From the NCBI RefSeq assembly GCF_030684315.1, contig NC_081370.1, forward strand, positions 34,366,728-34,430,727: DNA of 64,000 bases, given 5' to 3'. Source of the stretch: Stegostoma tigrinum. Taxonomy: Eukaryota. Position numbers and translations under genes: made by a program. Positions 2,439 through 61,843 of the stretch are shown piece by piece. Under the pieces are notes generated by a model. The model made no database searches. It worked only from the letters and a program-made list of their open reading frames with translations, and was not told where the DNA came from. Position 1 is the stretch's first letter. Each line of letters begins with the position of its first letter.

Positions 2439-2759
2439 CTGAACCAGAGGTCCATTTGCCCACAGATGACATTGCTGTTCAGAATGGAACAGAGAGATCT
2501 GTGAGTTGTACTGTTAAAGGATTTTACCCTCAGAAACTTGATCTCACCTGGGAAAAGGAAACAACAAAGGGAATTGAGGAACTAAAAGATAATTTCTGCA
2601 CTGGTGCACTAATTTCCATGGATAATGGAACTTTCAGTGTTTCTAGCAGACTATGGATTGAGCCAACATTGAAAGATAATGGTAATGTATACAGGTGTAA
2701 TGTGAAACACCGCTCGCGCCCCGAAGGTATTATCAGCACAACTCGACTCACAGTTACAG
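2439..2759 (+). CDS. NCR3LG1-like: Gene A extracellular Ig C1 exon (321 nt)
   Basis: tgtag|CT..ACAG|gtatgt. Motifs SCTVKGFYP, LTW, NGTFSVSSRL and YRCNVKH, plus two NGT sequons. Confidence 0.95.
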
Positions 2760-5700
2760 GTATGTTCTCTTTGCAAGATATTTTTTACTCTGCTATTGTT
2801 AAAACACACACATTTAACGAATTTATGCCCTTTGTCTAATATTGAATTTCAACTGAAATATCCATCTGACTTAAATTAGGAGTTCATTCTTTTCCTAGTA
2901 CGCAACTAAATTATTTTTGCCTACAATAATGACTATTAAGAGTAACTAGATATGACATTTCAAAATCTCAGAATGTGATCCAACTGTACCCATGTTCAAA
3001 AGCTGTTAGAGTTACATGTGAATTGCTTTTAGAATCAGTTTTAATGATTTTTATGAAAATGCTAGCGAAAATAATTAAGTAGAGTTATGTTGAAGTTGAC
3101 TGTACAGTGCAGTCTGCTTATGTTCATATGGTTGATAGTGTCCAAACTAAATCGAAAATATTGGGGAAAAAATGAGAAAAGGTAAAGGGGAAAATAGGCA
3201 ATCATCGGTACACAAACCTGATTAATTATATTATCAGGTAGGTCTATGATTAATGTTGTAGTTCCATTCCTGACATCACTACTTTAGATGTAACAACTTG
3301 AATTTAACCATGGATTTCCATAGCACTCAGTGTTAAAGAGAGAGTTGGGTTCCTTTGGACACCTTTAGACTCCCAAAACATTTATTTGCCCAGAAAAACC
3401 AATATATTGAAATATTGTGCCATACACATGGTACACTGTGCATTCCGAGCCAAAAGAGTGTACAAAATAATGTAAATCACTGACTATAACAAGTACTGTG
3501 TAAATTCACATTTATTTATTTTAGTAAAGGGCCCCAGAATTGTTGAACTGTTTTATTTCTCCAGATGGGTTTATTTGCAACACTTCATGCCAAGTTTGGT
3601 ATTGGTGATACCAAATGAACATTAATGGTTTCAATCTAGATTCCTTAATTTCAAAACTGTCCAGTACAGTCTACTGGGGTGCAGCTCTGAAACAATAGTT
3701 TCAGTCATCATGTACGTAAATTATAACAGTGTTGATGTAACTTCATTTCCTTGATAATGAGTGTGACATTCTGTGATTATCCTCTCTACCCTAGAAGTTT
3801 TGTTTTCCTTCAAATGATACAAAAGTAGCTGGTGAGTACATACCATGAGGTCGGTGGATTCCTCAGCATGAGGACTGGGCTTTTTCTTTTCCTCTGATCA
3901 ACCTGTTTAGTTCATCTATGGTACACATCTAGAGTAAGTGGGAGATAAACTTGGGTCTCCTGGCTCAGGTGTAGACCCTACCACTGAATTGCCAGAGCTC
4001 CACATGAGCCATTTTTAACTTTTTTTAACTTCCTGCCCGAAGCCAGCGTGATTTTGTTTTCAAGGGAGGACATTAACTGTACAGGACTGTTATTTCAAAC
4101 TCTTTTAAAACTTTATTGTGTTTAATTATCTTAAATTATTGTTTAATACATCATAGCAAAGCTGTGACAGTTCGCATGGGGTAGTCTATTTTTTGTGGTA
4201 ATTTTAAATTCATTGCTTCTTTACTTGTGTTGCAAATTTCAGAGCCTGAGAGAGATTCTTCAGTTGGAACAGTTGTTTGGAGCGTATTTGGTACATTCAT
4301 TATTTGTGCAGCTTTATTGTTTATTGCATGGTTCTACTGGAGAAATAAAAAAGGTACCATATCCACTTGTGAATATATTATTCCTGTAATTCTTTTAGTT
4401 ACTTCTTGCATGTATTACCTATAGAAGTCCTTGTGCTCTTTAAGTCAAGTCCCCATAGTCTTCGGTCCGCCTCCCCCTCTCTCCCTATTTATTCCAGTTC
4501 CCTCTCCCCATCCCCCTCTCTGATGAAGGGTCTAGGCCCGAAACGTCAGCTTTTGTGCTCCTGAGATGCTGCTTGGCCTGCTGTGTTCATCCAGCCTCAC
4601 ATTTTATTATCTTGGAATTCTCCAGCATCTGCGGTTCCCATTATCTCTCTCCCCATAGTCTCGGATGACCATGCTCTCATTAGGGGGAGATTGACTGTTG
4701 GTGGATTAATCTGAGGGTCACCACACCTCAGAAGAGGGGAGTGGTTGAGAAAGAGGAGCTTTCATAGTAACTTAAGGCGATTCAGTAATTGAACCACACT
4801 GTTGGCATCCCATTGCATCACAAACCAGCTTTCAAGCCAACTGAGCTGTTTGTGCTCCTATTTTGGTGTAATATCAGAACTTGGAGCTTACGCTTTAGCT
4901 GCGATTGGCAATCCAGTCACAAATAGTTTTGTTAGTAGTTTTTCTATTCGAACACTCATTGCACATTCACATCATCGTTGATTCATTTCAGTTTTTTTTT
5001 CTAATTTACTCAGGCTTTGTGGATGTTGCTGTCTGAGCCAGCATTTATTGCCTATTTCTAGTTATTTTTGAACCACTGCAGCCCATTTAGTGCTAGTACA
5101 CCCACAATGCTGTTAGGGAAGAAAGTTCTTGGATTTTAGCCTGGCAACGGTAAAGGAGTGGTGAGAGATGCCCAAAGCTGAGTCGTGAGTGGCTTGGAGG
5201 GGGACTTGCAGGTGGTGATTTTCCCATGTATCTGCTGCCCTTGTTCTTCAAAATGGTAGTGATTGTGGATATCAAAGGCGCTGCCCAAGGATGATTGGTG
5301 AATTTCTGAAAGGTATCTTGTAGGTGGTGCCCACTACTGCTACTGAGTGCCTACAGTGGAGAGACTGAACGTTTGTAGATGTATTGCCAAGGCTGCTTGA
5401 TGTGGATCATGTCAAGATTCTGAAGGAGGTGGAGATAAATTGTCCACTTGGCACTTCTGGCTGAAAATGGCAGCAAATGCTTTACTTTTTTTTTTGCAAG
5501 GACTTGTTGGGCCCCAACTGTTGAGGATGGGGACATTTTCTGATCATTCTTCTTCCAGTGAGTGGATGTGGCAGGGCTGCAGAGCTTAGATCTGATCCAT
5601 TGTTTGTGGGATCACTTAGCTCTGTCTATTACTTGCTGCTTATGCTGTTTAGCATGAAGCTAGTCCTGTTCTGTAGCTTCACCAGCGTAATTCCTCATTT

Positions 5701-8700: not shown

Positions 8701-11700
8701 GTCCATTTGGTGCAGGTTACCCAATTTTTTAAAAAAATTTAGATGTATAGAGAACAATTTATTAGTTTTGTATGTGTGCAGTAGTCAGTTTCTTAGTAAT
8801 TTAAAAGAAAAATGATATTCAAAAGCTTTTAAATCTTGACTGCTGGTGTCCATGTATCTTCCAAAAAGGCTCATTTTGAGAGAAAAGTAAAATACTGCAG
8901 GTACTGAAAATATGAAATTATAAGCTGATAATGCTGGAAAACCTCAGCAGACCCAGCCGCGTTCTACTGAATGAATATTGACCAGAAGCATTGATTGTGT
9001 TTTCTCTCTATGGTTGCTGGTGCCCTACAGAGTTTTTATTACTCTTAATTTTAAGAAGCTCGTCAAAAGCTCGCAATTGGCCCAGTTAGTAGAGGTTGTA
9101 GTAATGATTAATTAAATCTTGGTATGCAACCAGCTTCTAGCACAAAAGACAGAATTTTTGCTTGCTACCTCTGAAATTAAGTGCTATGTGACAATGGCTA
9201 TTGGCAACTTTCTCTACTCAGCAGAGGTTAAGGACCTAAAGTAGTCTATTAATTGCCACTTGGGGGCATTACCCCACCAGTTCCTTGATCACCTACCTCC
9301 CCAGGAAGGAAGAACAGTGGCTAGTCTCCCAACTAGAAAACCGGGGTGACTGACCTGCCAGAGGGTCACCTCTGAAATTTCTCTGCCATTTGACAACAAC
9401 ATCCCCATCCCCCAAAGTCTTGCCAATTACCACCTCCTCCACAAATGTCCACATCTTGTGAGAAGACGATAAAAGACACAACTTCTCATTGCTGGATCAC
9501 CTACAGAACAGATTTTGACCAACAGACACTGGGACTCAGGGACTCTGCTGCTCTTGCTCAGTTCTTAATGAATTGATTCTATGGCAATAGGGTGAGTTAT
9601 CTCACTGGTGTAGGTGATGTGTAAGCTGCTACCTAACGTATTCCCTTTGAGATCAAAAGGGGAAAATCCCAGCCAAGGTTTCCATTGGATGTAATTTGCA
9701 TGTTTTTCATCTGTTGAGAAAAGATTGGATTGGATTGAGAAAAGACAGCGTAAACCTTTCTGAAACTCTCACTTATGTATCCTGGTGTTTGCTAATGTCA
9801 CTGGACTAGTAATCCAGAAGCCCAGGCTATTGCTTTGGTAAACATTAGTTCAAGTCCCATCACAGCAACTATTGCAGTTAAATTCAATTAATAAATCCAG
9901 AATTGAAAGTTACACGACTCCAGACGTGCGCCAGTTTACTTGAATCTCAACCGCTGTCTGAAATGACTGAACAAGTCCATCCATTCAAGGGAAATTCATA
10001 TGGGCAACAAGTGTTTGCTTTGCCAGTGACCTCCTCATCCTATGAAAGAATAATTTAAAAAAAACACAGTCATTGACTTGCATTTGCACTCTGCCTGCAG
10101 CCTAGCAAGGAAATGAAACAGAGTAAGCAAATAAGAACATTTCCATTGTTAAATTTTAATCTTCTTTATTAGTTCCTCCAGAAATTATTGAAATGAAACC
10201 CCCTTCCATCCTTCACCATTTGGAGGAAGATTTCATCGATTACCACGTCTCTGGATTTAGACCTTCGAAGATTCGCGTTGTTTTAATCTTGAAGAGGAGA
10301 GAGAATGGAAATGGAAAAAAAATTTTAGAATGGCACAGCACAGATGGGAATAATGTAAATAATGTACAAACAATGTGCCCAAATAATCAAGATGAAGTGC
10401 AGCTTTTTGTAAATAATTGTGAAGAGGATAGATCTTTTTCACCTTTGGAACCAACTTTATCCTGTAACAGTAATAGAACTTTCAAGTTAAAGGGCACAGT
10501 CAAAGTCTGTCCTGATGTGAAAAGTGATAATGGGGCTGAATTAATTCTTGAAGTTTATCATGATGCTGTTTCCCAAGTCAAGTCAATAGCCATAAGACTG
10601 GATGTTAAAGCAGGTAAACCATGTACACGTTTTTTTCACAATTTTATTTATGCTTCATGAATCCATTCTGTTTTTTTTTGTAAACTTGTGTATTTGTCCA
10701 TACAATGTAATTGTATTGTTAGTAGTGGTCGTGTAGTTTTGCCACCTGGAGTCTGTCTACATTATAGAAAATGCAATCTGTGATATTAGTATTTTCTTGT
10801 TCTTATTAATACGTGGAAATTCTTTCAGTTTCAAGAGATGACTTCTTTATTTTGTTTCCCTTTTCTAAAGTCCCGCCAAAAATTTCAAACATTGTGGTGC
10901 CACTTCGTGTCTGTCATAATGAGCCTGCAGCCTTGGTTTGTTCAATAATTGGATTTAAACCAAATTCTCTTCAAATCACATGGCAACAAATCAGGAAGGA
11001 TAATAAAGTGGAACTTGTTCGATTTCATCAGGGCAGGACTGTCTTTGCTACTAACAATGGTAACAAGTGCAAGTATCATCATCAAATCAGTGAAGTAGAA
11101 TATGAAGATAAATCCTATGGTCTTACCAGTGCCCTAGTTATTTTGCCAGCAATACCGCAAGACCAAGAAACAAGGTATATCTGTGAGGTACAACATGATG
11201 AGTCTTACACTATCAAGCAGAGAGATACAATTCTGCGAATTACAGGTATGTCATTCTTCTGACATCCCTTGTGTAGGAATATGGATTAAATGTGTTAACT
11301 GATGCTATTTTCTCATTTTTGTCTGTTAAAAGCCTACGGTATGTTTAATCTTTTCATTTCTTTTTCAGCCCCACCAAAATTGGACAGGATAGTGTGTAAT
11401 GTAGAAAAACCAGTTGCAGGAGAGTGCATAACTTTGCAGTGTCAAATACATTCTTTTTATCCTCCTGGAATAGTAATAACATGGTTGAAACAAGGTAAAA
11501 AAGTGACAGAAAAATTTGAACAAAGTGAGCCCACACTGGGAATTGATGGACTCTATCGCTTGACCACTAGTTTAAAGGTTACACTGAGCAGAACTGATGT
11601 TGGGAAGAAATATGCTTGCCAAGTAAGCCATGAAAGTCTAGAACAGCCATTGGAAGTTGACTGGAAGGTTGATCATTTCAGTAAGTAACTATTGTTAAAT

Positions 11701-14700
11701 CATCATGCAGAAACTATAAGACAATGAAACTTGCTAAATCATAGAATCCCAACAGTGTTTGGCCTGCTGACTCCATAGCAACCCTCCAAAGAACATCCCA
11801 CCTAGATCCACCCCTCCCAACCTTATCCCTGTAACCCTGCATTTCCCTTGACTAATTCACATAACCAGCAAATTCTGGGCAATATGAGCAATTTAACATG
11901 GCCAGACCATCCAACCTGCACATCTGTGGACTTTGGGAGGAAACTGGAGCACCTGGAAGAAACCCACATAGTTGGGGAGAATGTGCAAATTCCACACAGA
12001 CATTTCCCTGAGGGTGGAATCGAACCTGGATCCCCGGTGCTGTGAGGCAGCAGTGCTAACTACTGGAGCTCTGTGCCATGTGAATAATCTCCAAATTAAA
12101 ATAAATTACCAAGATTCCACTTTTTTTGTAGCTTTACATTGGTACAAATCAGAACCACCAAATTAAACATGAATTAGCAGATACGTGAAAAGGTAAATTT
12201 GCTTTATATAGTTAATACAACAAGATACAGCATATGCAACCACAAATGTTTGCTTCACTTATTGCTGAAAAGTTTTTTTATTCACATAGGGTGGTTCAGG
12301 AGTCCTATCTGACAATAACGTTCACCTCCAGGGTTCACAGATACAAGTATCATCACTATTAACTCACACCCCTACAGTATCTTCTGTTCCTTGCATCATT
12401 GACATTCCTGAGTGTGTAGCTTTCAAAATTTCTTTTCAGTTGAACAACCAAAAACAAGCTGGTTCACGGTTTGGCCACTTCTGGGAAAACACCAAGCTCT
12501 CTGGCATCTCTGAGCTATCTTCATTGAAATAATTTCAGTACTTAAGCTCTTGTGTCCTAAAGCAGCACAGCACATACAAACATCAATTGGTACTCCTCGG
12601 GTGCCTGCCTTTCTGACATATACTAGGTTATATCACAGTTCTGGAAGAATTGTCATACCTAATTTAGTTTTTATAACACCTTCACAAAACTAACCAAGAT
12701 GCCACCGTTACAAAATCCAACCTCCAAGTATGTGGAAAATTAGGCTTGAATGGCCTCACGATATTCAATAACAAAGTTGCTGGAAAAGCTCAGCAGGTCT
12801 GGCAGCATCTGTGAAGGAAAAAACAGAGTTAGCGTTTCAGGTCCTGTGACCCCTCCTCAGCTCTGAGGAAGGGTCATCGGACCCGAAACGCTAACCCTAT
12901 CTTCTCCTTCACAGATGCTGCCAGACCTGCTGAGCTTTTCTAGCAACTTTGTTTTTGTTCCTGATTTACAGCATTGGCAGTTCTTTCAGTTTTTATCACG
13001 CTATTCAATGTTCTGTCCCAAAATTGATGAGTTGCCAATCCCATCTGAAGCTGAAGCACTGGCTGCAGCTTTATGCATGTATGAGGGTGCGGGGGGTGGA
13101 ATGAGGGGCAGTGAAATGCAACACTTTGTTCAAGAAAACAACATGTGACAATTTATTAAGGGATACTTGAGATCTTTAAAAATAGTGACATTTTCATTAA
13201 TGCAAACTCAAAACACTCTATTTTGTTTGTCTGCAGTATTAGCACCAAAGGTAACAGAAGTTACAGTTGATCCTGTTCACCCAAAGGTGGGAGAACTTGT
13301 AACCCTTTCCTGTAAAGCTTACGATTTCTTCCCAAAAGACAACGAAATATTCTGGCTGAAAGGGTTTGAGAGAACTAAAGATGGAGTTGAAATGGATGAC
13401 ACTGTATTCGATAGCTCGTCTAGTTTGTACTCTCGACGGTCCAAAAGGACATTCAGTCCAACTGACATGGACCATGGAAAAGAGTTCAAAATGCAGATTC
13501 TTCACACTGGGACTTCAAATAAGCCTGTCTCATCCAGTCATGTTTTGAAACTATTTGGTAAGCCTGGTTCCCAACAAGATTTCAGAGTAACAATTACAGA
13601 ATGTTGAAACGTTATTTAGAATGGACGGATGGTTCAAGTTCATTAAGTTGACTAATGTTTTGTCAGGAAGGTTGATTAGTCCATTAAGTTAGGTCGAATG
13701 ATCCATTTCATTGAATCGCCGCAATGTGGAAGCTGGCCATTTGGTCCATCATGTCCGTACCCACCCTTCCGCCCAAACTCTACTCGAACACTGTAACCCT
13801 GCATTTCACATAGCTAATCCCCATAGCCTGCACGTTCCTGGACACTGTGGGCAGTTTAGCATGGCAGTCCGCCTAACCTGCACCACTTTGGACTGCAGGA
13901 GGAAACTGGAGTACCCGGAGGAAACCCAGATGTGGAGAGAATGTGTAAACTCCACACAGTCATCCAAGGCTGGAATTGAATCTGGGTCCCTGGTGCTATG
14001 AGGCACTAGTGCTAACCACTGAGCTACTGTGCCATAGAATATATCACAAGATTTCACTTTTGCGAAAACCAACAAAGCAAATTTTATACGGAACAGGTTA
14101 AACAAGCAAACTTGACATAATGTTTTATAACTATGTATATTGTGCATTCCAGTTTACTTCTTATTGCACCTAAGAATTATCTTCTGAGATTAATCAATCT
14201 TTAAAGTTATTTACTTATGTAGGGACCTCTGACAGGTAAGCCTCAGCTTTCAGGAAATGTCGTCTTGGTTTCAGCTATTCTCCCCAATAAAACCTTAATT
14301 TACCTTCTCTTGACTGAGGAATCTGCTTTTCATTACTTAGAAGTTAAACTGTTCTTCCCTTTTGTAACACAAAACTTCCAAGGGCCATTGTCGGCTTTCC
14401 ATTCATTTCAAGCTGCACAATCTTCCATCTTCTGTTCTCCCATAAAGTCCAAATTGAGATTAAGCCATCCCCGCTCCAAAATACATTAATGATCTTATTA
14501 GTTTTCACTCTACGTAGAGTGCAGATCTGTCTGTCATCTGTTGTGACTATCATCTCTTAGCGAGCTATGTACCACATGAAATCCAATCTGCAACTGGCAA
14601 AGAGTCAGTTTAAATGAAACCAGAAAATCTTGCCAAGAACCACCAATCTGTATAACAATTTAACATGTTCAGGATTAGTGATACCTTATTTAATGTTTAT

Positions 14701-17700
14701 TCTTTAATGTGAATGAGTTTCACAATTTTCCATCATTCACTAAATACTTTTAAATTAATTTCATTCTAAATCCCAGAACAAAGATGTCTCCAAGACTTCC
14801 CAAACTGAGGAATACAAAAATCACATTTCCATGGTTTTTTTAACGCCATAAAATCATCTGCTGTGTTATGATTTTACTTCTCTAACTGTTAACCTCAAAT
14901 AAAAATAGATTCATAGAATCCTTACAGTGCAGAAGGAGGTCATTCAGCCCATCAAATCTGCACTGACTGTCCCTCATTAGACTTCTTGCCTCATTCTGCT
15001 ACACCTATCGCTCAGACCCATCTCACATTCTACCAGCTGTTTCTACTGTTTGTCAAATGCTGCAGTACCCTCTCTGACAGGAAGACGACATTGCTTTTAT
15101 TTTGAAGATGAATTCAACACCGGCTGGAGAGTGTTTTCACTGACATTCCTTGTTTGCCAGTGACCTCCAAATCCATTTTAGTGGCTCCTTTGGCCCTGAT
15201 TTGTGGTATTCCATCTTGCTTCTGGTTTGCTAATCGCAACTTAAACTTCTTGTATCTTAAAGATTTTGACAGTTCATTATTTTCTTTGGAATGGCCAACA
15301 TTATGTATCTGTTTCACTGACCAAAGTTTGGTGGGAAAGGCTGGGGAGACAGATGTTCAAATATTTGTTGATGATGCTTAAACCTGATGCTATAAGGTTT
15401 GTAATCACTTGCGGTTTCATTCAATTTCAACAGGAATACCATATGTTGAAGATATCAAACTTGTTCCACCAGAAGCCAAATATGGTAGTGACCTTACTAT
15501 GACATGCCGTGTCACTAACTTTCTCCCACAAGACATTAATGCAGCTTGGCAACAAGATGGCAACCAGGTAGTCAAGGAAATCTCAGTTAAAGGACCTGTG
15601 AAGGAGAAAGATGGATGCTCTTCTGTGACATTTCAGTTACAAATAAGACCAACTGCACTAAATTTTAATCAAGAATTTTCTTGCCAAGTGAGCCATGTTA
15701 AATTAAAGGCTCCAGTTACAAAAAAGACAGTTTTAATACTTCCAGGTAGGTTTTACCATGACTCTTTTCTTTATAAAATTTGAAAAGTTCCAAGTCATTT
15801 TTAATTGTGGTTGACTAGGTCAAAGAGAATTAATTTGATTTCATCTTTAGAGGTAGGAGAATGGCATGAAACAAACTATTTCAAGATAAATGACCGCGAG
15901 CAAATTAGAATTCAATAACTCTTAAGAATTCAACAGATTGTAGAAGAAACCTTAACTGGTGATACATAAAAGAAGGATTTTTGATTTGAGATCATTATGT
16001 TCGCTGTTTTAAAAATATATCCAAATAAATTCAGCTTTTGAAGTAATTACATTGATAGAAACTAGATCGCAGAAGTTCTGAACATTTTTGTTTTTGCCTC
16101 AGTTTGTCAGTCTTCTAAAAAACTTTTAATATGGATCTTTCTAGTACAAGTTGGACAAAATAGTTAATATTATGATTTTTGAATCCAGTTTTGTTTTGGT
16201 CTGTCTTTTCTGTGACAGTACTTTGTGTGAGTTATAATGCAGTGAACTTTATTCTTTGGGAGCTCCTTTGATATTTATAGGTAAAAATGTCTCTCACTGC
16301 TGCTGTAAAGTGGTATATTGAAATACCCTACCACTATCTTTACTTATAAGGTCAGTGTTGTTTTCAAAAGAATCTTTTGAATATGATCATTAGTTTATCT
16401 TTCATATATTTTGTGTACATCGCAGACTATAAATGTATGTTTAGTTTCATTTTATATTGTTCATCTTAAAGATTAATGGCTGTGGAACAAAATTCAATCA
16501 TTCATAAATCTTTTATTTGTTTTTCAGCTTTGTCTCCTACCTTGTCTTCTATTAAGCTTGATCCAAATTCCTTTGAAGTTAATCAGAAACTAACATTCAG
16601 TGTTACATTGACAAAATATGCTCCTGCTGCAGTCGAAATAAAGTGGTTTAAAAACGAGACACGTTCAAATATGATTCACAAACCTGTGGAAATTGCTAGT
16701 GATGGTCTTTGCTCATCAGTTACAAGCACAGAATTTGTTGCAACTGAGAAGGATGATGAGTGTGTCATCAGATGTGAAGTGTTTCATCCAGCAACAAAAG
16801 AAATTCAAGAGAAAACTTTCACATTATTCCTTAAAGGTGAGTGCCATTTTGTTAGAGATGGGTTGAGAACAAAGCATTTCATCACAGTCACAAACAAAAA
16901 CAGAAATTGCTGGAAAAGCTCAGTGGGTCTGGCAGCACATGTGGAGAGAAATCAGAGTTAATGTTTTGGGTCTAGTGACCCTTCCACGGAACTGTGGACA
17001 GGCCACTGAACCCAAAATGTTAACTCTGATTTCTCTCCACAGATGCTGCCCGACCAGCTGAGATTTTCCAGCAATTTTTGGTTTTGTTTCTAATTTACAG
17101 CATCTGCAGTTCTTTTGGTTTTCATTTCATTAAAATGTTATAATTGTCATGTTGAGTTTCTTGAATGCAATGTATTCATTTGAATGTTTACTTGATGTTG
17201 AAACTTTGTCGATAAACAGATTTTATTGCTGTGCTGAGAATAGTTAATTTGTGATGACTTCAGATTCATTACTCTTAAAAGAGCTACTTAATACTCCAAT
17301 ATTCTAAGGATGTACTACATTTAACTAACTGTTTCTGTGCTCAGGTATTAAAAATGAAGAATCGCCTTATTCAGATCTATTGAAAGATGAAGGTAAAGTG
17401 TTCATCTTGAAAGTTTTTGTTTTGTGCATGTTTGGTTTTAATCCATATTGATGTCAGTGTAGGGTATCAGACTATGCAGAAAATAATGTAGATATAACAT
17501 TTCAGATGGAGAGGAGTGCTGTCTTCATTTCTGGCTATTAGAATGGATCTAATGGGTGATCCTTTTAAAGTGAAACAGGGATGATATGATGTAATCCAGC
17601 ATCCCATTTTCATCATCACTGCCCTAATTACACACAATTGTACCTGTGTTCAAATAGAATTACTGACTAGGGTTGCGAGCTGCTGGGTAAAAGACAAAAA

Positions 17701-23811: not shown

Positions 23812-23904
23812 GTTGGTATGGCAGTTTCTGAAACAGTAATCAATGTATTCTGATTTAGTAGCTACAAAGTGGAGGGATATTCTTGCTTACACTTCATAAT
23901 GTAT

Positions 23905-37560: not shown

Positions 37561-37619
37561 TTGTACAAGGGGTTCGAAGTTTGAGCACCCGAAGAATGAG
37601 TTCAAATTGGCACATTGAT

Positions 37620-41326: not shown

Positions 41327-41464
41327 CAGTTCTTGCTATCTCTACGTTTTTAGGTTGTTCTGGTTGGGGCGTTTTGATTTAATAGATACAAATTCAGTAT
41401 TCGTACCCAAGAGTAGTTCTAATGAGTTTGCATATTTTCTTTTTAAAACGGATATGGGTGCTCA

Positions 41465-42629: not shown

Positions 42630-42639
42630 AACGTGCTCA

Positions 42640-42839: not shown

Positions 42840-42912
42840 ATGGGCCCGGTGAGGAGCTCGCTGCCGCCTCTGGTCCCGGTGTTAGCACTGCTGACCCTGG
42901 TACCGCACTCAG
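42840..42912 (+). CDS. NCR3LG1-like: Gene B signal-peptide exon
   Basis: Kozak context GCCATGG. Encodes MGPVRSSLPPLVPVLALLTLVPHS; donor CAG|gtaaag is phase 1. Confidence 0.88.
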
Positions 42913-45900
42913 GTAAAGGTCGGGGATGGGGGAGCGGCCATTCGGCCGTCTTCGGGAATGCTGGGCTCAAAAGTTCAGGCTTTGTACTTTGCCCGTGCAT
43001 TTTCTCCGGGTGTAAAATAGGAGATGGGCATTTCCTCTCCTAGGACGCTATTTAATATGTTTTGTGTTGAAATTGGCTAAATAAAGCTTAAATTCCTCGT
43101 CGAGCTGGAGAAACTCAGAAATTCACCGTCTGGAGAGAGAAAATAGAATTAATGTTTCGGGTCCAGTGACCTTTCTTCAGCACTTCTGCGCTTTTAAAAA
43201 TACAATTGTACCCATTTGGACGTACATGGAATAGCGTAGGTTAGATGGGCTTGAGATAGGTATGACAGGTCGGCACAACATCGAGGGCCGAAGGGCCTGT
43301 ATTGTGCTGTAATGTTCTATGTTCATTTTGCTTCTACTTTCGTTACGGAAATAGCATTAGTTTGAATAATGTGTTTCAAAAATATATATAAGGTGTAGAG
43401 CTGGATGAACACAGCAGGCCGAGGAGCATGAAGGCTGACGTTTCGGGTCGAGACTTTCTGGAGAAGCTCTGCACCGTGTTACCTCAGATTCTCCAACATC
43501 GGCAGCTCCTACTATCCCTTTCAAAAATATATGTCGTTATTCTGCCTTGCACGGGCTGTTTGACAGCTGGGCACTGACTACTGGTAGGATCTTGGTCTCA
43601 CTCCAGAGCTCCTGACCTGAGGTTCTGACCCAGTGCCCCATCAACTAACTGGGCACAGCCTGCTTTAATACAGGGTTGTGGAATCATACTGTACACTAGA
43701 GGTCCATGGAGTCTGCACCAATGGAAGACTACTCGAAGTCTACACTAGTTCCCCAGACCATCACTTGGCCCCCAGCCTTCAATGTTATGACATTTCAAGA
43801 GCTCATCCATGTACCTTTTAAAGACTTTTGAGGTTTCCCAACTCAGCTTCCTTCCTGTGTAGTGCATTCCAGATTTCCGTCACCCTCTGGTTGAGAGAAA
43901 ATACCTCCAAACACCCTCTAAGCCTCCTGTCTGTCACCTTAAAATCACACCCCCTTATTATGTGCTATTTAGCTAAGGGCAAAGGCTGCTTTCTGTTTGT
44001 GCTGTCCCTGTCCCGCATAATCTTACGTCTCTGGCTTAGGTCTCCTTTCAGCCTTCCCTGCAACAATGGTAATAACCTGAGTTTCTGCAGCCTCTTTCCT
44101 TAGCTAAACATCATGAAAATGCAAGGCAACCAATTTAATGGGTTGTGAGACTATCTTACATCTATTGCTTGCTTTCTTTTAATTTTCGCTTCAAGCAATG
44201 TATTCACTGCTTGTGGAAGCCCCCAGTTTCATCAGGCAAATACTATGTTGATAATGTTACAATTTCCCGCAAGTAAAATTTTCACCTAAGTGCTGCTTTG
44301 TGACTAAGTACTTTTTTTGGAACACAGACAGAAATAGGGAAAGCAGCTACCCTTCATATCTCAGCACCTAGCATCTTTGTGCTGATTAGGAAATGTTTGT
44401 TGCCAATACTCTCTTTTCAGAATGGCGATAAAAGTCGTGACATCTGTCCAACTTTGCCCCGGAGATATTTGAGGAGTTATCCTTGGTCTAACCTTATTTT
44501 CAACTATATGGGGTCTAGGTGATATATAATGAAGACATAGCCTCTTTGGCTACATGTACAGCAATCACACCCAGCTTGACACCACCACCACCTCTCTTCA
44601 AACTCTGTCATTTTCTCTCTCAGCTTGATTGTCTGACATCCAGTTCAATCAAAAACAGGTTGAAATTTCTTTTAAACTGAAAATCACTAAGCCATGACCG
44701 ACTGCAGTATAGGCACCTTTATCATAGTTGGATTCCCTCAGTTTCAGCTTTCCTATTTACAATTGCAGTGTCCTGCTTGATCCCAAGTTGGAGTTCTGAC
44801 CTCATTTTCTCTTCATGCCAAGACCGTCTACTTCCACGTTTTTATCTATACCTTTGTTTTAAATTGTATCCTTGAGATACGGGCATATCTGGCTAGGCTG
44901 GGATTATTTGCATATCTCTAAATGCCCAGAGTGCACTTGAGAGTTGCTCTGGGTCTGGAGTTGCATGCAGGCCAGAACAGGTAAAAGCAGCAGCATCGTT
45001 CCTTAAATGATGTTAATGAGCCAGTGTGTGTTTTTTCACAACTATCAGCAGTGGTTGCATTTTATTGTAGAGCTATTTTTTAAAATTCCTCCTTCTATTG
45101 AATTCAGATTGGACCCTTTTACTCAGATAAAAACCAAAAGAACTGCAGATGCTGTAAATCAAAAACAATGCCGCTGGAAAAGCTCAGCAGGTCTGGCAGC
45201 ATCTTTGACAGAGAAAACAAAGTTAATGTTTCGGGTCCAGTGACAAATAATTCTAGCCTAGCCAGATATGACCATATCTCAGTTTTGAGTTACTAGTCCA
45301 GTGACATTAAAATACACCACTTGGGCCTCGTTTGTTTTATGAAGACCCTCATGCAATCTTTTGACACCATCTAGGCTCCTGTTTTGTCTGAGCATTGAAC
45401 TTTTTTTTTCTGCAATGCTTGGTGCATTATTGTTGTCCAGGGTGTTCTACAAATGCAGGATGTTGGTGGAATTGTTGAAATGACAGTAATCCTTCAGTCG
45501 ATTCAGGACTTAATGTTCAAGATACATATTGTTCTGATAGCATCTTTATTGAAATAGTTGGGCTGCTGGATGAATTATCTGCTGATAATTTTGATCTTGA
45601 TTGTTGCAGAACAAGGTGACCTAATTGTGTCGATGAATTCAGGAATTGTGAAAGCCACCGTAAATAAAGATGTTGTTCTGGAGTGCCGAGTTTCTGACTA
45701 CAGAAGAAAAATTGAGCTTAAAAACATGGGCGTCCAGTGGTTCTACCAAGAATCAGGCTCTCTAGATGCGCAGAAACGAGAGGTTTATCAATTCATTGCT
45801 GGCAAACATATACCATACAGAAAAGGAGCCACAATTATTGACGATTATTTGAAGGAAGGAATAGCTTCCCTTTTTCTTCCAAGTGTGCAATTTTCTGAAG

Positions 45901-48900
45901 CGGGAGATTACACTTGTATTGTTTTTATAACCCCGGACAGTGGAAGTGGATGGTCATCAATGACTGTTTCAGGTAAGAGTCACAACCTGATTCTTATTGT
46001 CTGCTGAATTGTGCCTGCATTAAATTTTAAAATGGGTCAACTGAAAACAGTCAATCATACCATCTGCACACAAATATGAGCAGTCTACTGCAGTGCTGTC
46101 CATTGCACTTGCCACAAGTAGCAAATCAGTCACAGTCATGGCGGATTAATGCTGTTGGGTTATTTTTGGGCCATGCAACACTGAGCTTCATCAAAGTTGT
46201 AGCTGTAGGTGTGAGGACGCTTACTGCTTGCTAGATCATAATATGTCGCCTGCCCCCAGCTGAGCAAAGAAGGAATTCACTTTGCTGCTTGACAGGCCGT
46301 AGATATTGGTTTGACTGTGTTGTTATTAGGCAGACATCCCATGCCAGTCAGGCCATGATACGTTTATCAGAACATTAAGTTATTGGTCTCTCGTGACCGG
46401 GAAGCTGAAGGACCACTTTCTCAATGAAACAAGTCATTAGTTAACCTTCTCTGTTCCTGTTCTCTCTGATGCCTCCAGCTGATGCGTTTAGATCACCAGG
46501 ACCACTTTGTGATGCACTATGAAAGAAGGGCAGTCAACAACACAAATATATTTGTTCTCAAAATTGATCTTGGAGAAGTTAGTGACATAGGAGATATGAA
46601 ATGAAAACTTCGTTGGTTAGCAAGCAGATGGCTTTTTCAAAACAGTTAAGATATATGAATTACAGACAGTACAGCATGGCTAGCTATAAGGCTAGAACTG
46701 TGCAATTTTGACAGCTGGAGCAACACTAGTGTGTTCAGCCTTCATCCCAATTGCAGGAGGTTTTTGATGAGATAAAAATACAGCATCGTGAAAGGCCTGG
46801 TGACAACACAACCAAAGCAGGTATCAGAACAGAACCCAGAACATTGATACTTTTCAATTCTAGTGGGCTGCCATGTCTCCTAAAATATTAATTTTAATAA
46901 AGCATAGTTACCGCTTGAAAATCTTATTTTTGGAACAAACTGGAGTATTCAAAACAGAATATATCAGTCAACAGCCTGTCACCAGCCTTTGAGAGCAGAC
47001 AGAGCGGTGACAAAGTTATATGGGACCATGAAGCAACAGGAATAAAAGGAACAGTCAGAGAGGACAAGATAATAAAGTGTGAAGCTGGATGAACACAACA
47101 GGCCAAGCAGCATCTCAGGAGCACAAAAGCTGACGTTTCGGGCCTAGACCCTTCATCAGAGAGTCAGAAAGGACAGGTGTGAGGAAAGGATATTTTGAAC
47201 ACCAGACATTTCTGTGCAATCATTACATAACCAGAAGATGTGAACGGGTGAATACTTACGCCAAATATTAAACATCTGATATATTGTTATTTGCAGCCCC
47301 GCCAAAGGTAAGCTTATCTGCGACTGCAATCACAATTGAACATGGTACGGAGAAATCAGTGAAATGTGACAGTGTTGATTTTTATCCTGTCTCAATTGAG
47401 ATGGGCTGGATACAGAAAACCAAAAACGAGGAACAAATGCTTTCAAAACACATCTGCACAGGATCCCCAGTTCAACATGAAAATGGAACCTACAGCGTTT
47501 CCAGCCGACTGAGGTTGAGACCAACCCTTGAAGACAGTGGCAATATTTATATCTGCTATGTGAGGCACTCATCACTTAATAAGGATTTAAAACTGGAAGC
47601 CCAACTGACTGTCAAAGGTATGTTTCATGTTTCTGTGATCTTGTACGTGAGGTCTGGTTTATGTTAGGGAATGCAGCTTCCAAAAAAAAACACTGTAAGT
47701 TTACTCTTATTACACATGAAGGTTTAACACAGTCATTTGAAATTCTTCTGTGGTTTACGGTTAGTGGCACTGATGAAATAGGCAAAAGGGAATTTTGAAC
47801 AGAATGGTATTTGTGCTTAAATTTCAAATTATGGATTTATTTGGTCCATTTTTAAACTGAACCTTCAGTGCCCCTGTTTTGGTAATAATTTGAAATTTAC
47901 ATTAACTAAATAAACTCTGTTGAAAGTTGTGCTTATGGAGTTTGATGGCTGTATCAAGTTTGATTTAAAGTTTTTCACAATTAACAGCTTTCCAAAACTG
48001 ACTTTCAAGTTTGGCATTTCAACAATACTTGAACAAAATATTTGATAGTTATAGCCTATCAAGGTTTCTGAAAAAAACTTGAAAGAAAAATATCACCAGA
48101 AGAGCCCTGAGTGGTTCGGTCATTCCTATTGTATGTGTTGCCTTTCCACAAGTTTGACACGCAACAATTTTGAAAAGTGCTATTGTAGTGGTAAAGCATT
48201 TAAAATAATTTATATGTCATGAGACTTTCTGTTTTTAGCTACATGAAAAGAAATTGCCCTTTGCTTGGTCAAACATTTCACTTCCCTTTTAAACTTGCCC
48301 TATATCCCTACATAAGTACATAACTTCTGTTGGCTTTCCAACTAGTCAGGAGCAATTGTAGCAATGAGCCATATTTTGCTTAGAAGTAAAAGGGAGCTTT
48401 TGCTGATAAATGTAAATTAACCAGCGATTTGTAGCAAAGAAGTTACATCCCGTGAACTGAGAACCAATAGAAGTTGCTAGTTGATTTTTTTTTAGCTGTG
48501 CGATTAGTTTTGCAAAAATGCTAACCTTCTCATAATTTCCATGAACTTGCTATGCTTGAATACTAACTATCCGTTAAATTTACCACAGAGAGTTAATTCT
48601 AATAATCAGCATAAGTAGCTTTTAACAGTAAGATTATTGTTAAGGACTGACAATCAAGCTGTCTGCCCTAGAAAGTGGCCACTCATACGTGTGATCTTTC
48701 CTTCTTTCTGATTGTGAATTTTAGGTTTTTTCTAACATTTTAAATCTTAATGTTTTTGCCTTAGTTTTTCTATCTTTTCAGATGCTTTTGTGTCATAGAG
48801 TCATGGAGTCATACAGCATGGAAACAGGCCCTTTGGCCCAAACTGGTCCATGCTGACCATGGTGCCCACTCAGCTAGTTCCAATTGCCCACATTTGGTCC

Positions 48901-54900: not shown

Positions 54901-57900
54901 GGTTTCCTCCCACTTTCCAAGGATGTGCAGTCTAGGTGGATTGGCCATGCTAAGTTGCCCGTAGTGTTCAGGGATGTGTAGATTAGGTAGGTTATAGGGG
55001 GGATGGGTCTGGGTGGGATGCTCTGAGGGTCAGCATGGACTTGTTGGGCTGAAGGGCCTGTCCCCACATTGTAGGGATTCAATGATTCTACGATCTATGC
55101 TGCCAGGCCTGCTGAGCTTTTTTCTGTTTTTTTTTTAAATTTAGTCAGAATCTCTGCCATTTCTTTCTCCATAATTTCTTCTCTCTCTGTTTCTAAGGCA
55201 CCAACATTTGCATTAGCAATTCTCTTCATTTTTTTAAATGTTGTTAAATATCTAACTAGTTCACACTCATTTCTCTCCCCCCCCCTTTTTTAAATCAACC
55301 TTTTGGTGATGATGCTGAAGAATTTTTATAAGTCTTCAAATTCTGGAGTTCATGTAAGTTCAAGAAATGTTGAAAATGCTAACTGACAGTTGCTGGAAAT
55401 AAACGAATGTTATTTACAACTGTGAAGATGCTAACGTGAGATGTTCAGCTTTCTCCATCAACTTGCAATGCATTTCTAGTTGTATATACTTTAAACCATT
55501 GTCTTGAAGCAAGTCTCAATTTTCAGATATGGTTCTGTTTTGCTATTCACTGTTAAAACAACTGTTTATTTTACCAACAGAGCCAGAAGTTGTTGTACCA
55601 GTAGGGATAATAACTGGATGTGTAATCCTTAGTATATTGGCATGTACAGCAGTTGCAGGCATTGGATTTTTTGTGTATCTGAAGTACCTTAAAAAAGGTA
55701 ACATATCCTTCAATTCACTTTAAGAGTACAGAATATGCAAAATATTAGATAATTCTTGCTTTGTATCATGATGGCTCATCTCTGTTGCAGTTTTTGTTTA
55801 GAACACTTTTCTGGGAACACGGCAGCATCTGACTGTATCAGCATTGATAGTAAAATCATACAACAAGCAATATTAATATGTAGGGAAGGAGGCCCGATAC
55901 CATGGGTTTGCTCATAAAACAAACTTCAGATTTTCAGTAAAACTTCATGTATTTGTAAATGATCGGTGGATAATAATGTGACAAAGTAATCATGAGATGA
56001 AAGTTACCAAATTAAACATTTTTCAAAAATAATGCTACTTTGGATTATTTTATATCTGAACAAGTTAGTTAAAAGATACAAATGTCCAGTAAAGGAGGAA
56101 GATTAAATATCTTTGCAATGTCATGCACTTCTGTTCTCTGTCTTCAGCATTTGACTCGAGATGAACTAGCTCTGAACTGAGGAGCAAATTAAATGCATGG
56201 AAAGAAGCTCAAAAATGAGCACTACTTTGCTACCGTAGTTTTGTATGAAGTCATGCTGTCAGCTGTTTGTTTTCGCAACTATCTTACACTTTTTAAATGT
56301 ATTTTGAGTTCTCAAACTGATCTGTTAATCTTTATTCTGTCTCTGTCAATTCACCAGAGCTTTGTCTGTCTTTTGTGTGCATAATGTGTTTCTATTTTAT
56401 CATCTCTCTCCCTTCTGGGGATTTGTGACTAGCATTTTGTTTGTTGTCCATCCTTATGTCTACTGATCTTTCTCCCCCATACCCCTCTCTTTACCTGATT
56501 TCCCTGTAGATCAATCTTTTGCTCAGATGATCTTTCTCATTATATTGTTAAACACTGGCTTCCACACATATGTTACTGATCTCTGCTACTCTGCTTGTTT
56601 ACTTTATTTGTATCCTTCTGTCCTAAATATTCTGCTCTTCTGCCTCAATTTTCTATTTTGGTAGATGATCTGTCTGTTTGTGTCTCCCTATCTCCCAGAA
56701 CTTTATTTTAACTTTAAGGAGGCTAATGATTATTTTGGTCAAGACAAATTTATTTCAATGAGAAATGTTATGTAATTTCATTACTATTTATATATGAACC
56801 TACTGTCGTTGATCTTTGTTATTCCAGTAAGAGTATTTTGTCATAGAATAGATTAATGTTGATGTTTTGAGATGACCGACCCTGTGGTAAAGAGTGAATA
56901 AATATCCAGGTGTTTCTTTTATAGTTCCTCCAAAAGTTTCCGCTATCAGCCACCCTCCAAGAATTATACATTTCCAAGAGGCTCTCATGAATTGTCAGAT
57001 TTCCGGATATAGACCTGGGAACATTTCTATTTGTTGGTTGCTACAAAGAAAAAACAGTAGGGAACCAAATGTAATTTATTCATGGAGCTCTACACCTCAG
57101 AGCTTACAGGATTCTGGACCAGATGAGCAGAAGAAACTAATTTCAAAACATACATCTCAAATTGAAGAAGATAAATCCTTTAATTTTAAGGTGCCGATTG
57201 TTAAGCTCAACAACGATGGTAGCACCAGCGTGAATTGTGAAGTTTCGTTCTGGCCTGATATAAATACAGATAATCAAGCTATCCTCCAGGTTCAAGTACA
57301 CCATTGTGCTCTCAAAATGCCTATAATTAAGCAGACTTGCCTGAAAGTTGAAGGAAGTAAGTAAATTACAAGTGATGCCAATCAAACATATTCAAAGAAA
57401 TTTTGTTTACAAGGAGGTATGTATGTACACTTGCACACGGAGGTTGGTTTGTATAGTTAGCTAGATGGTTGGTTTGTGATGCTAAGTGATGCCAACAGTG
57501 CAAGTTCAATTCCCACATCAGCTGAGGTCACCATGAAGGTCCAGCTTTCTCAACCTCTCTCCTCCCCTTACCACCAGTCATCTCTCTCCAATTGTACCAG
57601 CCTCCACCACTTCCTCTGGCAGCTCATTCCATACACACACGCACCCTCTGCATGAAACTGTTGTCCCTAAAGTCCCTTTTAAATCTTGCCCCTCTCGCCT
57701 TTAACCTTATGTCTTCTAGTTTTGCATTCCCTTATCCTGGAGTGGCAGGGTGGGGACATTGTCAGCCACCCTATCCATGCCCGCCATGATTTTTATAAAC
57801 TGCTATAAAGTCACCCCTCAACCTCTGACATTCCAGGGAAAATAGCCCCTGCCTATTCAGCCCACCATCCTCTGCTTCCACTGTCCCAATGTTCTGTATT

Positions 57901-60900
57901 TCACAACCTTGTTATAGTAGTTGTACAATGAATAAAGCAGGATTGAAAAATTTAGACAACAGATGTTACCTTGCTACACACTGGTGAATAATTCCTTAAT
58001 CTTGTGCATGTAGGCCAGCATTGACTGCCTTTTTATTAGTTGAAGAGTGTTTTTAAAATAAGCATCGGGAGCCTCAAGACTCTAAGAAAAAAACAATGGA
58101 GTAAAGACATAAGTATACATTAACAGGAAAACGATTGTTTATTGACAATCCAAGGATCATTATGCATCGGCTTCATGCTGCAAAAAAGTAATTGCTTTGA
58201 CTTCTGACAATTGTATGAGTGACCACAGTTACTACTGAATTTCCTGTAATTACAATCCTGTACATAGTTGGACAAAAATCTATTTTTGACATCCCTGGAA
58301 TAGATAGAACAATTATTTTTGCTTTCAAATTTGTTTCACGGATCTTGATTTTGACCTCCACTTTATCACCTTTTTACCAAAAAATCAGAGCAGTGTGTTT
58401 CCTTTCATGTAGAATCCAGACATACTTCCACTTGTCGATTCTAATGTGACAGGCTTTAATAACATGTTCAATTCATTGTTTTGGCTATGGTAGAAATAGT
58501 AACGGTTACAGTTACTGTTCATTGAGCTAAACATTTTAAGTAACTGTGTTGCAGCTATACTGATCAGTGTTGTTTTAGATTAAAATTAAGGTATGATTTC
58601 TCTGGTTAGTGCACAAAAGAATACTTTTCACTGTGTCTTGGTACATGTGACAATGATAAATCAAATTAATGTTTCTGCAAACTCCTTAGCTATCTCTTTC
58701 AGAACCCTGAGTGTAGTCAATCCAATTTGGGTGGTTTATCTGCCTTCAGATCTTCCAGCTTCCCCAGCACCTTTGGCTTAGGGATGGCCACTGCACTCAC
58801 TTCTATACTCAGACTTGTGAAGTTCTGGTATGCTACGGGTGTGTTCCAACATGAAGAATGATGCAAAGTCTCTATTGGTTACATATATAAGCCCATTTTT
58901 GTACTTTTCCATATTACTGGAAGGTGGACTTGTCTATTATTGGGGAACTTTAAGGATCAGTTCATATTTATGACTTGTAAATTAAAAAAGACTATTTTTG
59001 AGTGAATTGACAGTAAAATAAATAATGACTAAGTGATCAGTAGGAACTATATCATAATAAAAATCTCCCACCATCTTTCAAATGATCAGGAACAACTGTC
59101 TCTGCTTGCATTCAACATGATAAAAAATATTAGCGGGAATCAGTTACAGAATTATATCATTTTCTAAAGATATTTGTGGACGCCAGGCAACATACATACA
59201 GTAATCCTAATTGTAGGCACAGTCCTCACTTCACTCAGGTGTTTACACCTTCTCTGCATTCCTGTACTACTATGATGCTCACAAAATCAAAAGAATTGCA
59301 TTTTTCTGTACTTGTACTGGTTTGCATGGCAATGCCTTATTTTTCAAAGTAGAACAGATGAAGAAAGCTTTGGCTGACATGTCCCCAACCTTAAGCCCAA
59401 ACTGTGAAGAAAGTAGTCCAGTTTCTGTTGTGATTGGTTTATTAAGTCAAGCACATAGTGTTCCACATTGTAACTGTACTGCTTGCCATGTGGAGGTATA
59501 AATTTATATGACAGTGAAAGACCTATGATGTTGGGAGAAGTCTTGACATGAGTCAGCAAGGTAATGCCTTATGACATGGAATCTTTGATTTATTTAGCAG
59601 AAATATGGTACTGACGGCTAAGGTTGAGAGATTCTTTAAAGAGCAAGATCTTCACCCACGTTTGCTCTCCAATTATGTAGATTATGTATCTTGCTTACAT
59701 TTTTTCTTCCTTGCTACATTTGTGAAGAATAAAATGTTTAAAAAGATATTTTGAGCCTTTATGTAATTTTATTTGTTCTCATTTGACCATTTCTCATTAA
59801 GTGGATACTTCCTTTTGAATTTGAGCCTTAATAACTGCACAGTTGCAATATTTGGTATAGTCTCCCACAGTTACATTGGCTGCATAAGACTGCAGTTGTA
59901 CAGACCAGACCATGTTTTAAAATCATGTACCTAGCTGCATTATAGCATTTTATGAAACCAGCTGACCAGTCTTCCGACACAGTTGGAACCTCACACACCA
60001 ATATTAGCAGTTTTTTTCAAAAGATGGGGATTTCCAAATTGCCCTTTTTTTCCAGTTAACATATTATAGATAGCATAATTGTCAGATTTCACTTTAAGTA
60101 GTCTACATTTATTGACTCTGAGAACTTTTAAAACATAATTGTATTTTCTCTCTTGTTTTAAAAACAAAGTTGGACCAAGAATGACTGACCCAGTGATACC
60201 ACAGTGTATTATTCATGAAGAAGTGCTTGCTGTGACCTGCCCAATCAATGGATTTAAACCTAGACCGCTGGCTATCACCTGGTACAAAGAAAAGAATGCA
60301 GTAAAAAAAGAAATTGGGAAACTTCAACCAGGAAAAACAGAGTTCTTTGAAATAACAGAACCAGGGCAACAAAAGTACACCCACAGTACAACTGAGCTGA
60401 AACATGAAGACCACACGCACACTGTTGCCAGTGTTTTGTATTTTATACCAACTATTAAGGAAGATCATGAAGCAGCATATATTTGTGAAGTAACACATCC
60501 AGCCACAGACACACAAATAAGTGAACGGATTAAGCTAAATTTAACAGGTACCATCAGCATTTCTCCATTTTTATTTTGTTTGTCTTACCACAGATTTTGC
60601 TATGATCGCTTAACAATCAGCATAGAATCAATTATTGAAGTGCACATTTAGAAGTTAAGAGCTACAGTATCGAATGGATAAGTAGTTGATTAGCAGTAAG
60701 AGCCATTACCTAACGTTGATATTGTTGCAATTTTTAAATTGTCTCTCAAAATATGACAACATTTAGAAGATCTTGGATAAAAATTGTATGTGCATCAACA
60801 TAAATGGTGGACCATTCCACCTGGGAATGAGAAACGCATTTGTTATATTTATGAAGTATTACTTGGAGGTTATATTTTTCCTGTAAAAATAAACAAAAAG

Positions 60901-61843
60901 AAGAAATTGAACGGTTTCTGGCTATGATATCTAGTGCTCTCCTTTCTACAATGAATTTATTTTATTGAACAAGTCTAAAATATTGAATTGAGTGGTTACA
61001 ACTTCAATTTGTTCTGAATTTCACTTTAGTATCAATCTTATTGTGTTTTACTTCTGGTCTCCTATTCTTCGGGTTGTTGTTGTGGTTGCTGTAATTGAGA
61101 AAAGATGCTTCCTAAATGCATACTTGGCCGGGCAACCAGATTTTAGCAGGATAAGGAAAATATCTCAAAACTACAGAATGAGGTAGAGAGGCATAGAAAT
61201 TTGGGAAAGGAATTCCAAAGCTTGAAGGCTAGCATTATGAAGTCAGAACAGCCCTTCTCATAGGAGAACTTTTCAGAATTTCAAAAAAAAAAGATCAGCA
61301 AATATCCAGGGTTAGAATGGATATTAGCTTATCATCTTTACTCAGCTACCTTGTATTTTGTAATTCAGATGCATAGTTAAGATCAAATATTTGTACAGTC
61401 ATTTGTAACTTTGCTAAGCAGATGCTTTTTTTTTGTTGTTTAAACATGAAATAAGTTTTAAAAACTTCAGTTTAGAACAAAGACCTAATGAAACAATCAA
61501 AATTTATGTTTTCCCATTTTGTTTTCCACAGCTGTCCCAAAATGTGATAATATAAAACTGTCACCAGAAACTCCGATTGTTGATGAACAAACAATGGCAT
61601 CTTGCAGAATATACTCATTCTTTCCAAAAAGCATTAAAGTTATCTGGAAAAAGGGTGATATTGTATCAAAGGAAGTGAATGCTGATGCTGAAGCAAACTA
61701 TGGAAAGGATGGCCTTTATTATTTCACAAGTCGTTTTGAATTCATTCCTTGTAGGGAAGATTTGGGGAAGGCATTAACTTGTGAATTCCAGCATGGAAGT
61801 ATCACTGGGTCCAGAAGAATTGAATGTGTACTGAATCAGTTAG
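42840..61843 (+). CDS. NCR3LG1-like: Gene B (3'-partial, 7 exons in window): B7-H6-like receptor, leader-V-C1-TM-(Ig)x3...
   Basis: Seven in-frame phase-1 exons. The last has a donor (G|gtaagt) and no stop, so the gene continues beyond the window. Confidence 0.9.
45610..45972 (+). CDS. NCR3LG1-like: Gene B Ig V-set exon, B7-H6-like (363 nt)
   Basis: ttgcag|AA..TCAG|gtaaga. Encodes DLIVSM..VVLEC..MGVQWF..YRKGA..GIASLFLP..EAGDYTCIVFITP, matching recalled B7-H6 V motifs (MGITWF, RPGA, GDASLRLP, EAGEYRCEVVVTP). Confidence 0.93.
47067..47161 (-). mobile_element. Short Penelope-like terminus with imperfect 14-bp TSD
   Basis: AGTCAGA(G/A)AGGACA at 47053 and 47162. Confidence 0.8.
47297..47617 (+). 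CDS. NCR3LG1-like: Gene B extracellular Ig C1 exon (321 nt)
   Basis: ttgcag|CC..AAAG|gtatgt. Motifs VKCDSVDFYP, NGTYSVSSRL and YICYVRHSSL; about 43/107 identical to gene A C1 by manual alignment. Confidence 0.95.
48795..49475 (-). mobile_element. CR1-like LINE 3' end
   Basis: Homologous to 18110-18800. Confidence 0.78.
51200..53950 (-). mobile_element. Very old CR1-like LINE remnant
   Basis: Scattered minus-strand motifs: LEHCVRFW at ~51600, YMDLQNSF at ~52220 and QHGFIQG at ~52320. Confidence 0.55.
54764..55092 (+). mobile_element. V-SINE (HE1-like)
   Basis: V-domain TGTGTGGAGTTTGCACATTCTCCCCGTGTCTG and a CR1-type tail. Confidence 0.85.
55581..55697 (+). CDS. NCR3LG1-like: Gene B transmembrane exon (117 nt)
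   Basis: caacag|AG..AAAG|gtaaca. Encodes EPEVVVPVGIITGCVILSILACTAVAGIGFFVYLKYLKK. Confidence 0.92.
56925..57356 (+). CDS. Gene B post-TM Ig domain 1 (432 nt; long insert, F-strand Cys replaced by Val)
   Basis: tttatag|TT..GGAA|gtaagt. Motifs MNCQISGYRP, ICW and LQVQVHH. Confidence 0.9.
60170..60547 (+). CDS. Gene B post-TM Ig C1-like domain 2 (378 nt)
   Basis: acaaag|TT..ACAG|gtacca. Motifs VTCPINGFKP, ITW and YICEVTHP. Confidence 0.9.
61532..61843 (+). CDS. Gene B post-TM Ig C1 domain 3 (312 nt)
   Basis: ccacag|CT..TTAG|gtaagt. Motifs ASCRIYSFFP, VIW, DGLY and LTCEFQH. Confidence 0.93.

Follow-up and report, generated by a model that had tools for sequence, protein, structure and literature searches.

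Why does a gene for a B7-like ligand run on past its transmembrane (TM) exon into a long row of immunoglobulin (Ig) constant-type exons? The question is raised by a 64,000-nt stretch of zebra shark (Stegostoma tigrinum) DNA on NC_081370.1 (hereafter the window, to whose coordinates all exon positions refer), which carries two same-strand paralogues, A and B, both laid out as (leader-V)-C1-TM and then C1-type Ig exons. The exons are there in both genes, the layout is conserved, spliced full-length forms exist in related species, and human B7-H6 is the best match of the ectodomain; the folds and the type I topology are predicted. NKp30 binding and a scaffold role of the tail are what we infer from these results, and we lean, with slightly better than even confidence, towards A and B being B7-H6-family NKp30 ligands whose cytosolic C1 string would be a docking scaffold that controls display and back-signalling.

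Layout of the two genes

Gene A has seven post-TM Ig exons and gene B has six, three of which lie inside the window. Within the window, gene A reads C1-TM-D1 to D6-linker-D7-stop and gene B reads leader-V-C1-TM-D1-D2-D3, the remainder of B lying past the window end. The exons are as follows:

2439..2759, + strand: gene A ectodomain C1 exon, 100% identical to P0001; its leader and V are outside the window, upstream
4243..4353, + strand: gene A TM exon, with a basic C-side and the sole hydropathy peak >1.3 in the model (KD19 2.48)
10173..10613, + strand: gene A D1, a constant-type Ig domain that lacks both canonical Cys and contains a long disordered insert
10871..11245, + strand: gene A D2, C1-set, AAG acceptor
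11369..11680, + strand: gene A D3, C1-set
13237..13557, + strand: gene A D4, C1-set, without the F-strand Cys
15434..15745, + strand: gene A D5, C1-set
16528..16836, + strand: gene A D6, C1-like, without the B-strand Cys
17345..17392, + strand: gene A 48-nt linker exon, acidic and predicted to be disordered, with an SxYxxL motif like an ITIM (the tyrosine-based inhibitory motif of immunoreceptors)
23519..23811, + strand: gene A D7, the final Ig domain, and the stop codon
42840..42912, + strand: gene B leader exon, which encodes the signal peptide and lies in GC-rich DNA
45610..45972, + strand: gene B V domain, top PDB match human B7-H6, FG-loop Thr-Pro present
47297..47617, + strand: gene B ectodomain C1 exon
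55581..55697, + strand: gene B TM exon
56925..57356, + strand: gene B D1, without the F-strand Cys
60170..60547, + strand: gene B D2, AAG acceptor
61532..61843, + strand: gene B D3; the RefSeq model P0047 places D4-D6 past the window

The D2 exon of A is 100% identical to P0001, a 1091-aa Stegostoma tigrinum RefSeq protein, and gene B corresponds to the RefSeq model P0047. All Ig and TM exons of A and B are of phase 1-1, have AG/GT ends and are stop-free, and the TM exon is not followed by any stop, the frame running on into the array. A six-frame scan of the window with family profiles yielded no further Ig exons. The N-terminal extension of B in RefSeq (upstream exon 37390-37443) was dropped, because the whale and nurse shark orthologues begin at the Met equivalent to 42840.

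Kinship of the ectodomain with B7-H6

Human B7-H6 was the best PDB match of the gene B V exon (E-value 4e-14 vs 1e-7 for CD276), of P0001 (1e-35 vs 1e-21) and of a family profile of 60 sequences (3e-58 vs 4e-50). An AlphaFold2 (AF2) model with a mean pLDDT of 86 fitted B7-H6 with TM-scores of 0.87-0.90 and a root-mean-square deviation (rmsd) of 2.1-2.4 Å over ~220 columns. The B7-H6 affinity of the ectodomain, put forward in a preliminary description of this DNA, is therefore seen both by sequence and by fold, and the IgV-IgC ectodomain is nearer to B7-H6 than to other B7 members. A type I single-pass protein with a leader is predicted from the leader exon of B, the one TM segment and the positive-inside rule. 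Titin and DSCAM took the top whole-model Foldseek ranks and were set aside, as they reflect just the many Ig domains.

Passages of the human study (PMC3135353) assign 44% of the B7-H6 contacts to NKp30 to Thr127-Pro128, and this FG-loop Thr-Pro is retained by both genes and by 56 of 84 V domains. The nurse shark counterparts of both genes were deposited under consecutive accessions (QTT61906.1 and QTT61907.1) as natural killer cell cytotoxicity receptor 3 ligand (B7H6); they are direct orthologues, 76-95% identical per domain, with the same full-length layout and no structural difference, and both genes are already known as B7H6 through these deposits. It is likely that the ectodomain binds shark NKp30 receptors.

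Human B7-H6 (NCR3LG1) thus shares with the shark genes the type I V-C ectodomain, the best match by sequence and fold and the FG-loop Thr-Pro, as well as an ITIM-like motif in the case of the gene A tail. It differs in length and tail: passages of PMC2715080 describe 454 aa and a Gag-homologous tail, whereas the shark genes encode ~980-1090 aa with 6-7 C1-type tail domains and exist as several tandem paralogues. No Gag-homologous tail was found, as Pfam lists only Ig families for P0001 and the B orthologues, and Ig domains tile the tail. SIRP alpha/gamma, tapasin/TAPBPR and shark UrIg2 also contain C1-set domains resembling those of the A and B tails, but carry them before the TM segment and give much weaker ectodomain matches. 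The SIRP plan (V-C1-C1 ectodomain, TM, short ITIM tail) does not fit A and B, which have one pre-TM C domain and the Ig array after the TM segment. Nor does that of UrIg/UrIg2 and Ig heavy chains, in which the C1 array is followed by a C-terminal TM or secretory tail, since in A and B the TM segment precedes the array; for UrIg2, passages of PMC12227049 give the order VJ, nine C1, then TM.

Range and age of the layout

The 212 proteins that we fetched came from a profile search (its best 150 of 386 matches at E<=1e-30) and from three word-indexed searches, and layouts were called with profiles built from 15 cartilaginous-fish sequences. The V-C-single TM-D layout was present in 118 of the 212 proteins, which speaks against a chance fusion, as the preliminary description had also held; 85 members were left after removal of pairs >70% identical. 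Carriers include sharks, rays, Callorhinchus, Latimeria, Protopterus, Erpetoichthys, Xenopus laevis, Rhinophrynus (labelled NCR3LG1) and Leptodactylus, so the range, across jawed vertebrates, is wider than had been supposed. From chimaera to frogs, the core domains D1-D6 keep their order. Seven of eight Logan proteins were full length (the partial one was left out), and all seven, from other species, showed V-C-TM-D on intron-less contigs of 3.2-7.5 kb, which we take to be spliced mRNA because B alone spans >19 kb in the window.

Trees of the ectodomain (51 rows) and of D1-D3 (47 rows, by a quick method) were built and midpoint-rooted without an outgroup or a mammalian row; both include nurse shark B7H6 and the frog protein named NCR3LG1. 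Clades A, B and C were recovered in both. B groups with the chimaera protein LOC103174894 (support 100/98 in the ectodomain tree and 100 in the D1-D3 tree), and A with chimaera LOC103174895 (89/71 and 99, respectively). These two chimaera genes have consecutive ids and lie on a same-sized contig, which, together with their places in the A and B clades, indicates that the A/B pair is older than the split between chimaeras and elasmobranchs. The post-TM C1 array would be the ancestral B7-H6 tail, in place of which human B7-H6 has a Gag-like one.

These results also bear on whether gene prediction or assembly has simply joined a short B7-H6 gene to unrelated downstream Ig exons. The named carriers are mostly RefSeq predictions, and no zebra shark RNA reads were seen, as such an artefact would allow; a sequencing-run search listed no RNA holder, three of its seven rows having shares of 0.06-0.08. 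Against it stand the identical order of domains in those 118 proteins, chimaera to frogs, the same three clades in ectodomain and tail trees, the full frame on intron-less Logan contigs and the lack of a stop after the TM exon. We give the artefact almost no credence and regard it as effectively excluded.

Divergence of A and B

A and B had been described beforehand as an ancient tandem pair with the same exon architecture, and the exon sizes indeed agree (C1 321/321, TM 111/117, D1 441/432, D2 375/378 and D3 312/312). Both D2 exons start at an AAG acceptor (10871 and 60170), at which the RefSeq models P0001 and P0047 also join. The ectodomain C1 exons, estimated at about 40% identity, were measured at 40%; the tail exons are 26% (D1), 35% (D2) and 30% (D3) identical. 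The introns lack extended similarity, as had been stated: when the A region was compared with the B region by blastn, 24 matches came up, none exonic and none colinear, which we read as dispersed repeats. An ancient tandem duplication is upheld by the trees, where A and B each group with a chimaera gene, in the ectodomain as well as in the tail.

Nucleotide identity by codon position follows the order 2>1>3 in all four A/B exon pairs (for D2, 0.52/0.65/0.38 at positions 1/2/3), as expected under purifying selection. Between gene A and its chimaera counterpart, identity is 50% in V, 39% in C and 36-52% in D1-D7. The tail domains are thus conserved about as much as the ectodomain C domain, in agreement with the selection on the post-TM array that the preliminary description had proposed. 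Its suggestion of a larger cluster also gained ground, as a third paralogue (C) lies on a same-sized contig; no sign turned up of A and B acting as a pair, for which no direct test was made.

The leader exon of B (42840-42912) encodes the same 24 residues that open the RefSeq model of paralogue C (P0030), the V domain of which is just 26% identical to that of B. A B-type leader also occurs in another C-clade protein (P0083), and the whale shark C model has no leader. This sharing may reflect a single promoter and leader that serve two gene bodies by splicing, or else a converted copy. Between A and B lie degenerate retroelement copies at 28700-31400 (+ strand) and 40200-42600 (- strand), presumably Penelope-like; their RVT_1 and GIY-YIG Pfam matches are weak and fall short of the curated cut-offs, and one copy stops ~250 bases upstream of the B start codon.

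Membrane topology of the array

The post-TM array very probably lies in the cytosol, because the C-side of the single TM segment is basic, sequons are enriched only before it and the Cys pairs are mostly lost. Statistics were taken over the 85 non-redundant members, which had been chosen for having one TM segment. The 12 residues after the TM segment are more basic than the 12 before it in 75 members and less so in 3. N-glycan sequons number 271 in 20,072 aa of V and C (observed/expected, O/E, 1.67) and 247 in 41,014 aa of tail domains (O/E 1.08); they are denser before the TM segment than after it in 73 of the 85, and four shared sequon columns are found in V/C, none in D1-D7. Both canonical B/F-strand Cys are present in V (82/84) and C (84/84), and in the tail in 2/79 (D1), 0/38 (D4), 11/45 (D5), 4/32 (D6) and 7/17 (D7), so that five of the seven tail domains mostly lack the pair. 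No convincing second TM segment was found among these members, just 4 of the 85 reaching a KD19 of 1.6. All 15 cartilaginous-fish sequences in one alignment share a mid-TM Cys.

Several observations count against this placement. D2 (42/46) and D3 (53/58) retain both canonical Cys, overall Cys content does not drop behind the TM segment (3.0 vs 2.3%), the sequon O/E reaches 1.43 in D5 and 1.24 in D2, and gene B, uninformative by itself, has one sequon before the TM segment and four after it. Besides, the counts are not independent because the members are related, and 5 of the 212 proteins have no TM segment between C and D1.

The retained Cys pairs of D2 and D3 would also suit an array selected for a secreted, TM-skipping form, an antibody-like V-C1-C1n chain, and carried as a passenger in the membrane form. 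Exon skipping keeps the frame because all Ig and TM exons are of phase 1-1, and the RefSeq X2 isoforms of white and basking shark B lack the TM segment that their X1 isoforms have, as do three unnamed proteins. The TM segment is present, however, in all seven full-length Logan proteins and in both nurse shark deposits, and most tail domains, unlike V and C, show neither the Cys pair nor sequon enrichment. We therefore find selection for a secreted chain distinctly improbable.

C1 domains usually pair, and the string could instead serve dimerisation or clustering, as antibody CH3 does, with A-A, B-B or A-B pairing raising the avidity for NKp30. Of the 85 members, 33 have a GxxxG motif in the TM region, against 12.5 expected by shuffling, although the TM exons of both A and B lack it. 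By our reading of the consensus, small or polar residues prevail at the outward positions of the B and E strands, unlike the CH3 pattern. The human B7-H6 ectodomain is monomeric according to passages of PMC3135353, so clustering would need another part of the protein. A pairing module seems to us the least convincing of the functional alternatives, slightly below the secreted chain.

Fold and variation of the tail domains

Each tail domain was modelled by AF2 as a confident beta-sandwich; the pTM of 0.44 points to no fixed relative packing among them. D1 begins at most ~15 residues after the TM segment in most members. Its model matched SIRP gamma D2 (Z 12.3, rmsd 1.9 over 101 residues) and, in a tie shared by C2-type domains, the B7-H6 C domain (Z 12.0, rmsd 1.9 over 99 residues); its first Foldseek rank was beta-2-microglobulin. 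D3 matched Ig constant regions, UrIg2, MHC/beta-2-microglobulin and SIRP, and the ESM Atlas matches were generic C1-set clusters. In profile comparisons D1 pairs with D2, D3-D6 form a group, and the ectodomain C domain scores 120-135 against D3 and D5, a pattern consistent with the tail having arisen by serial duplication of a C1 exon.

The number of profile-detected tail domains ranges from 1 to 8 per member, on one ectodomain type. Variants include D1 in seven near-identical copies (Heterodontus), a D4-like domain in four copies (Heptranchias), low-complexity repeats, D1 with a tachylectin domain and, in a frog, a row of ~10 or more C1 domains. Tails differ while the ectodomain is the same or similar in P0076, P0109, P0147, P0165, P0171 and P0100. 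Gene A models of Chiloscyllium and Hemiscyllium are without D5-D6 or D4-D6 and have short repeats at the linker position. Isoform models without the TM exon, predicted to be secreted, are P0014, P0019, P0071, P0082 and P0115, and P0002 and P0013 are without D1.

Possible roles of the tail

In the docking-scaffold proposal, the V-C1 ectodomain would engage shark NKp30-type receptors, and the six or seven Ig constant-type domains strung behind the TM segment would sit in the cytosol, where they would set the amount of ligand displayed and pass signals into the cell. The proposal is made by analogy, because the array occupies the same position as the human Gag-like tail, for which passages of PMC2715080, restated in PMC7654602, describe an ITIM as well as SH2- and SH3-binding motifs. 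The ITIM-like motif of the A linker exon is kept in whale, nurse and white shark. Other results are unfavourable to the proposal: this motif is found in just 6 of the 85 members and is not family-wide, the equivalent of Lys130, kept in A, is absent from B, no partner of the tail was identified, and the spliced forms come from relatives.

The wide variation of tails on one ectodomain type, together with several paralogues on one contig, would also suit an inside-out sensor or tripwire, in which a pathogen or stress factor binds, cuts or modifies the cytosolic C1 string and thereby turns ligand display on, with A and B perhaps cooperating. Such a V-C-TM-folded cytosolic module plan recalls the butyrophilins (V-C-TM-B30.2), whose cytosolic B30.2 domains switch on ligand display. 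Butyrophilins share a B7-like ectodomain, a folded cytosolic module and tandem clusters with the shark genes; they differ in that the shark module is a C1 array, and no B30.2 (PRY/SPRY) domain is among the Pfam families listed for these proteins. A fast-evolving decoy would not be expected to keep the core D1-D6 order so stable, nor would its tails be no more variable than the ectodomains, as is the case among orthologues; moreover, no ligand pocket or partner was found. We consider the sensor unlikely, as we do its broader form, in which an ancestral jawed-vertebrate B7-H6 read intracellular infection through its cytosolic C1-set array and so licensed NKp30 recognition, the human lineage swapped the array for a retroviral Gag-like tail, and one shark promoter and leader exon may feed two gene bodies.

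Novelty and meaning

In the literature searched (titles, abstract openings and passages, including PMC12227049, PMC10751288, PMC3964593 and PMC6514059), we found no description of post-TM Ig domains of B7-H6 or of cytosolic C1-set arrays; the main comparative shark and Xenopus B7H6 papers lie outside that search and may mention the layout. The full-length deposits suggest that the nurse shark depositors saw it, and it is conceivable, if somewhat short of an even chance, that it has already been noted in print. We conclude that A and B represent a real, ancient variant of a known family, with an unusual tail that is without a functional explanation.

To our knowledge, C1-set domains occur in antibodies, T-cell receptors, MHC, tapasin and SIRP, in the parts that are extracellular or luminal. 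A conserved cytosolic C1 string that is older than the chimaera-shark split and is present in coelacanth, lungfish, reedfish and frogs would break this pattern, and the array would offer a baseline for the poorly understood tail of human B7-H6, a target in tumour immunology.

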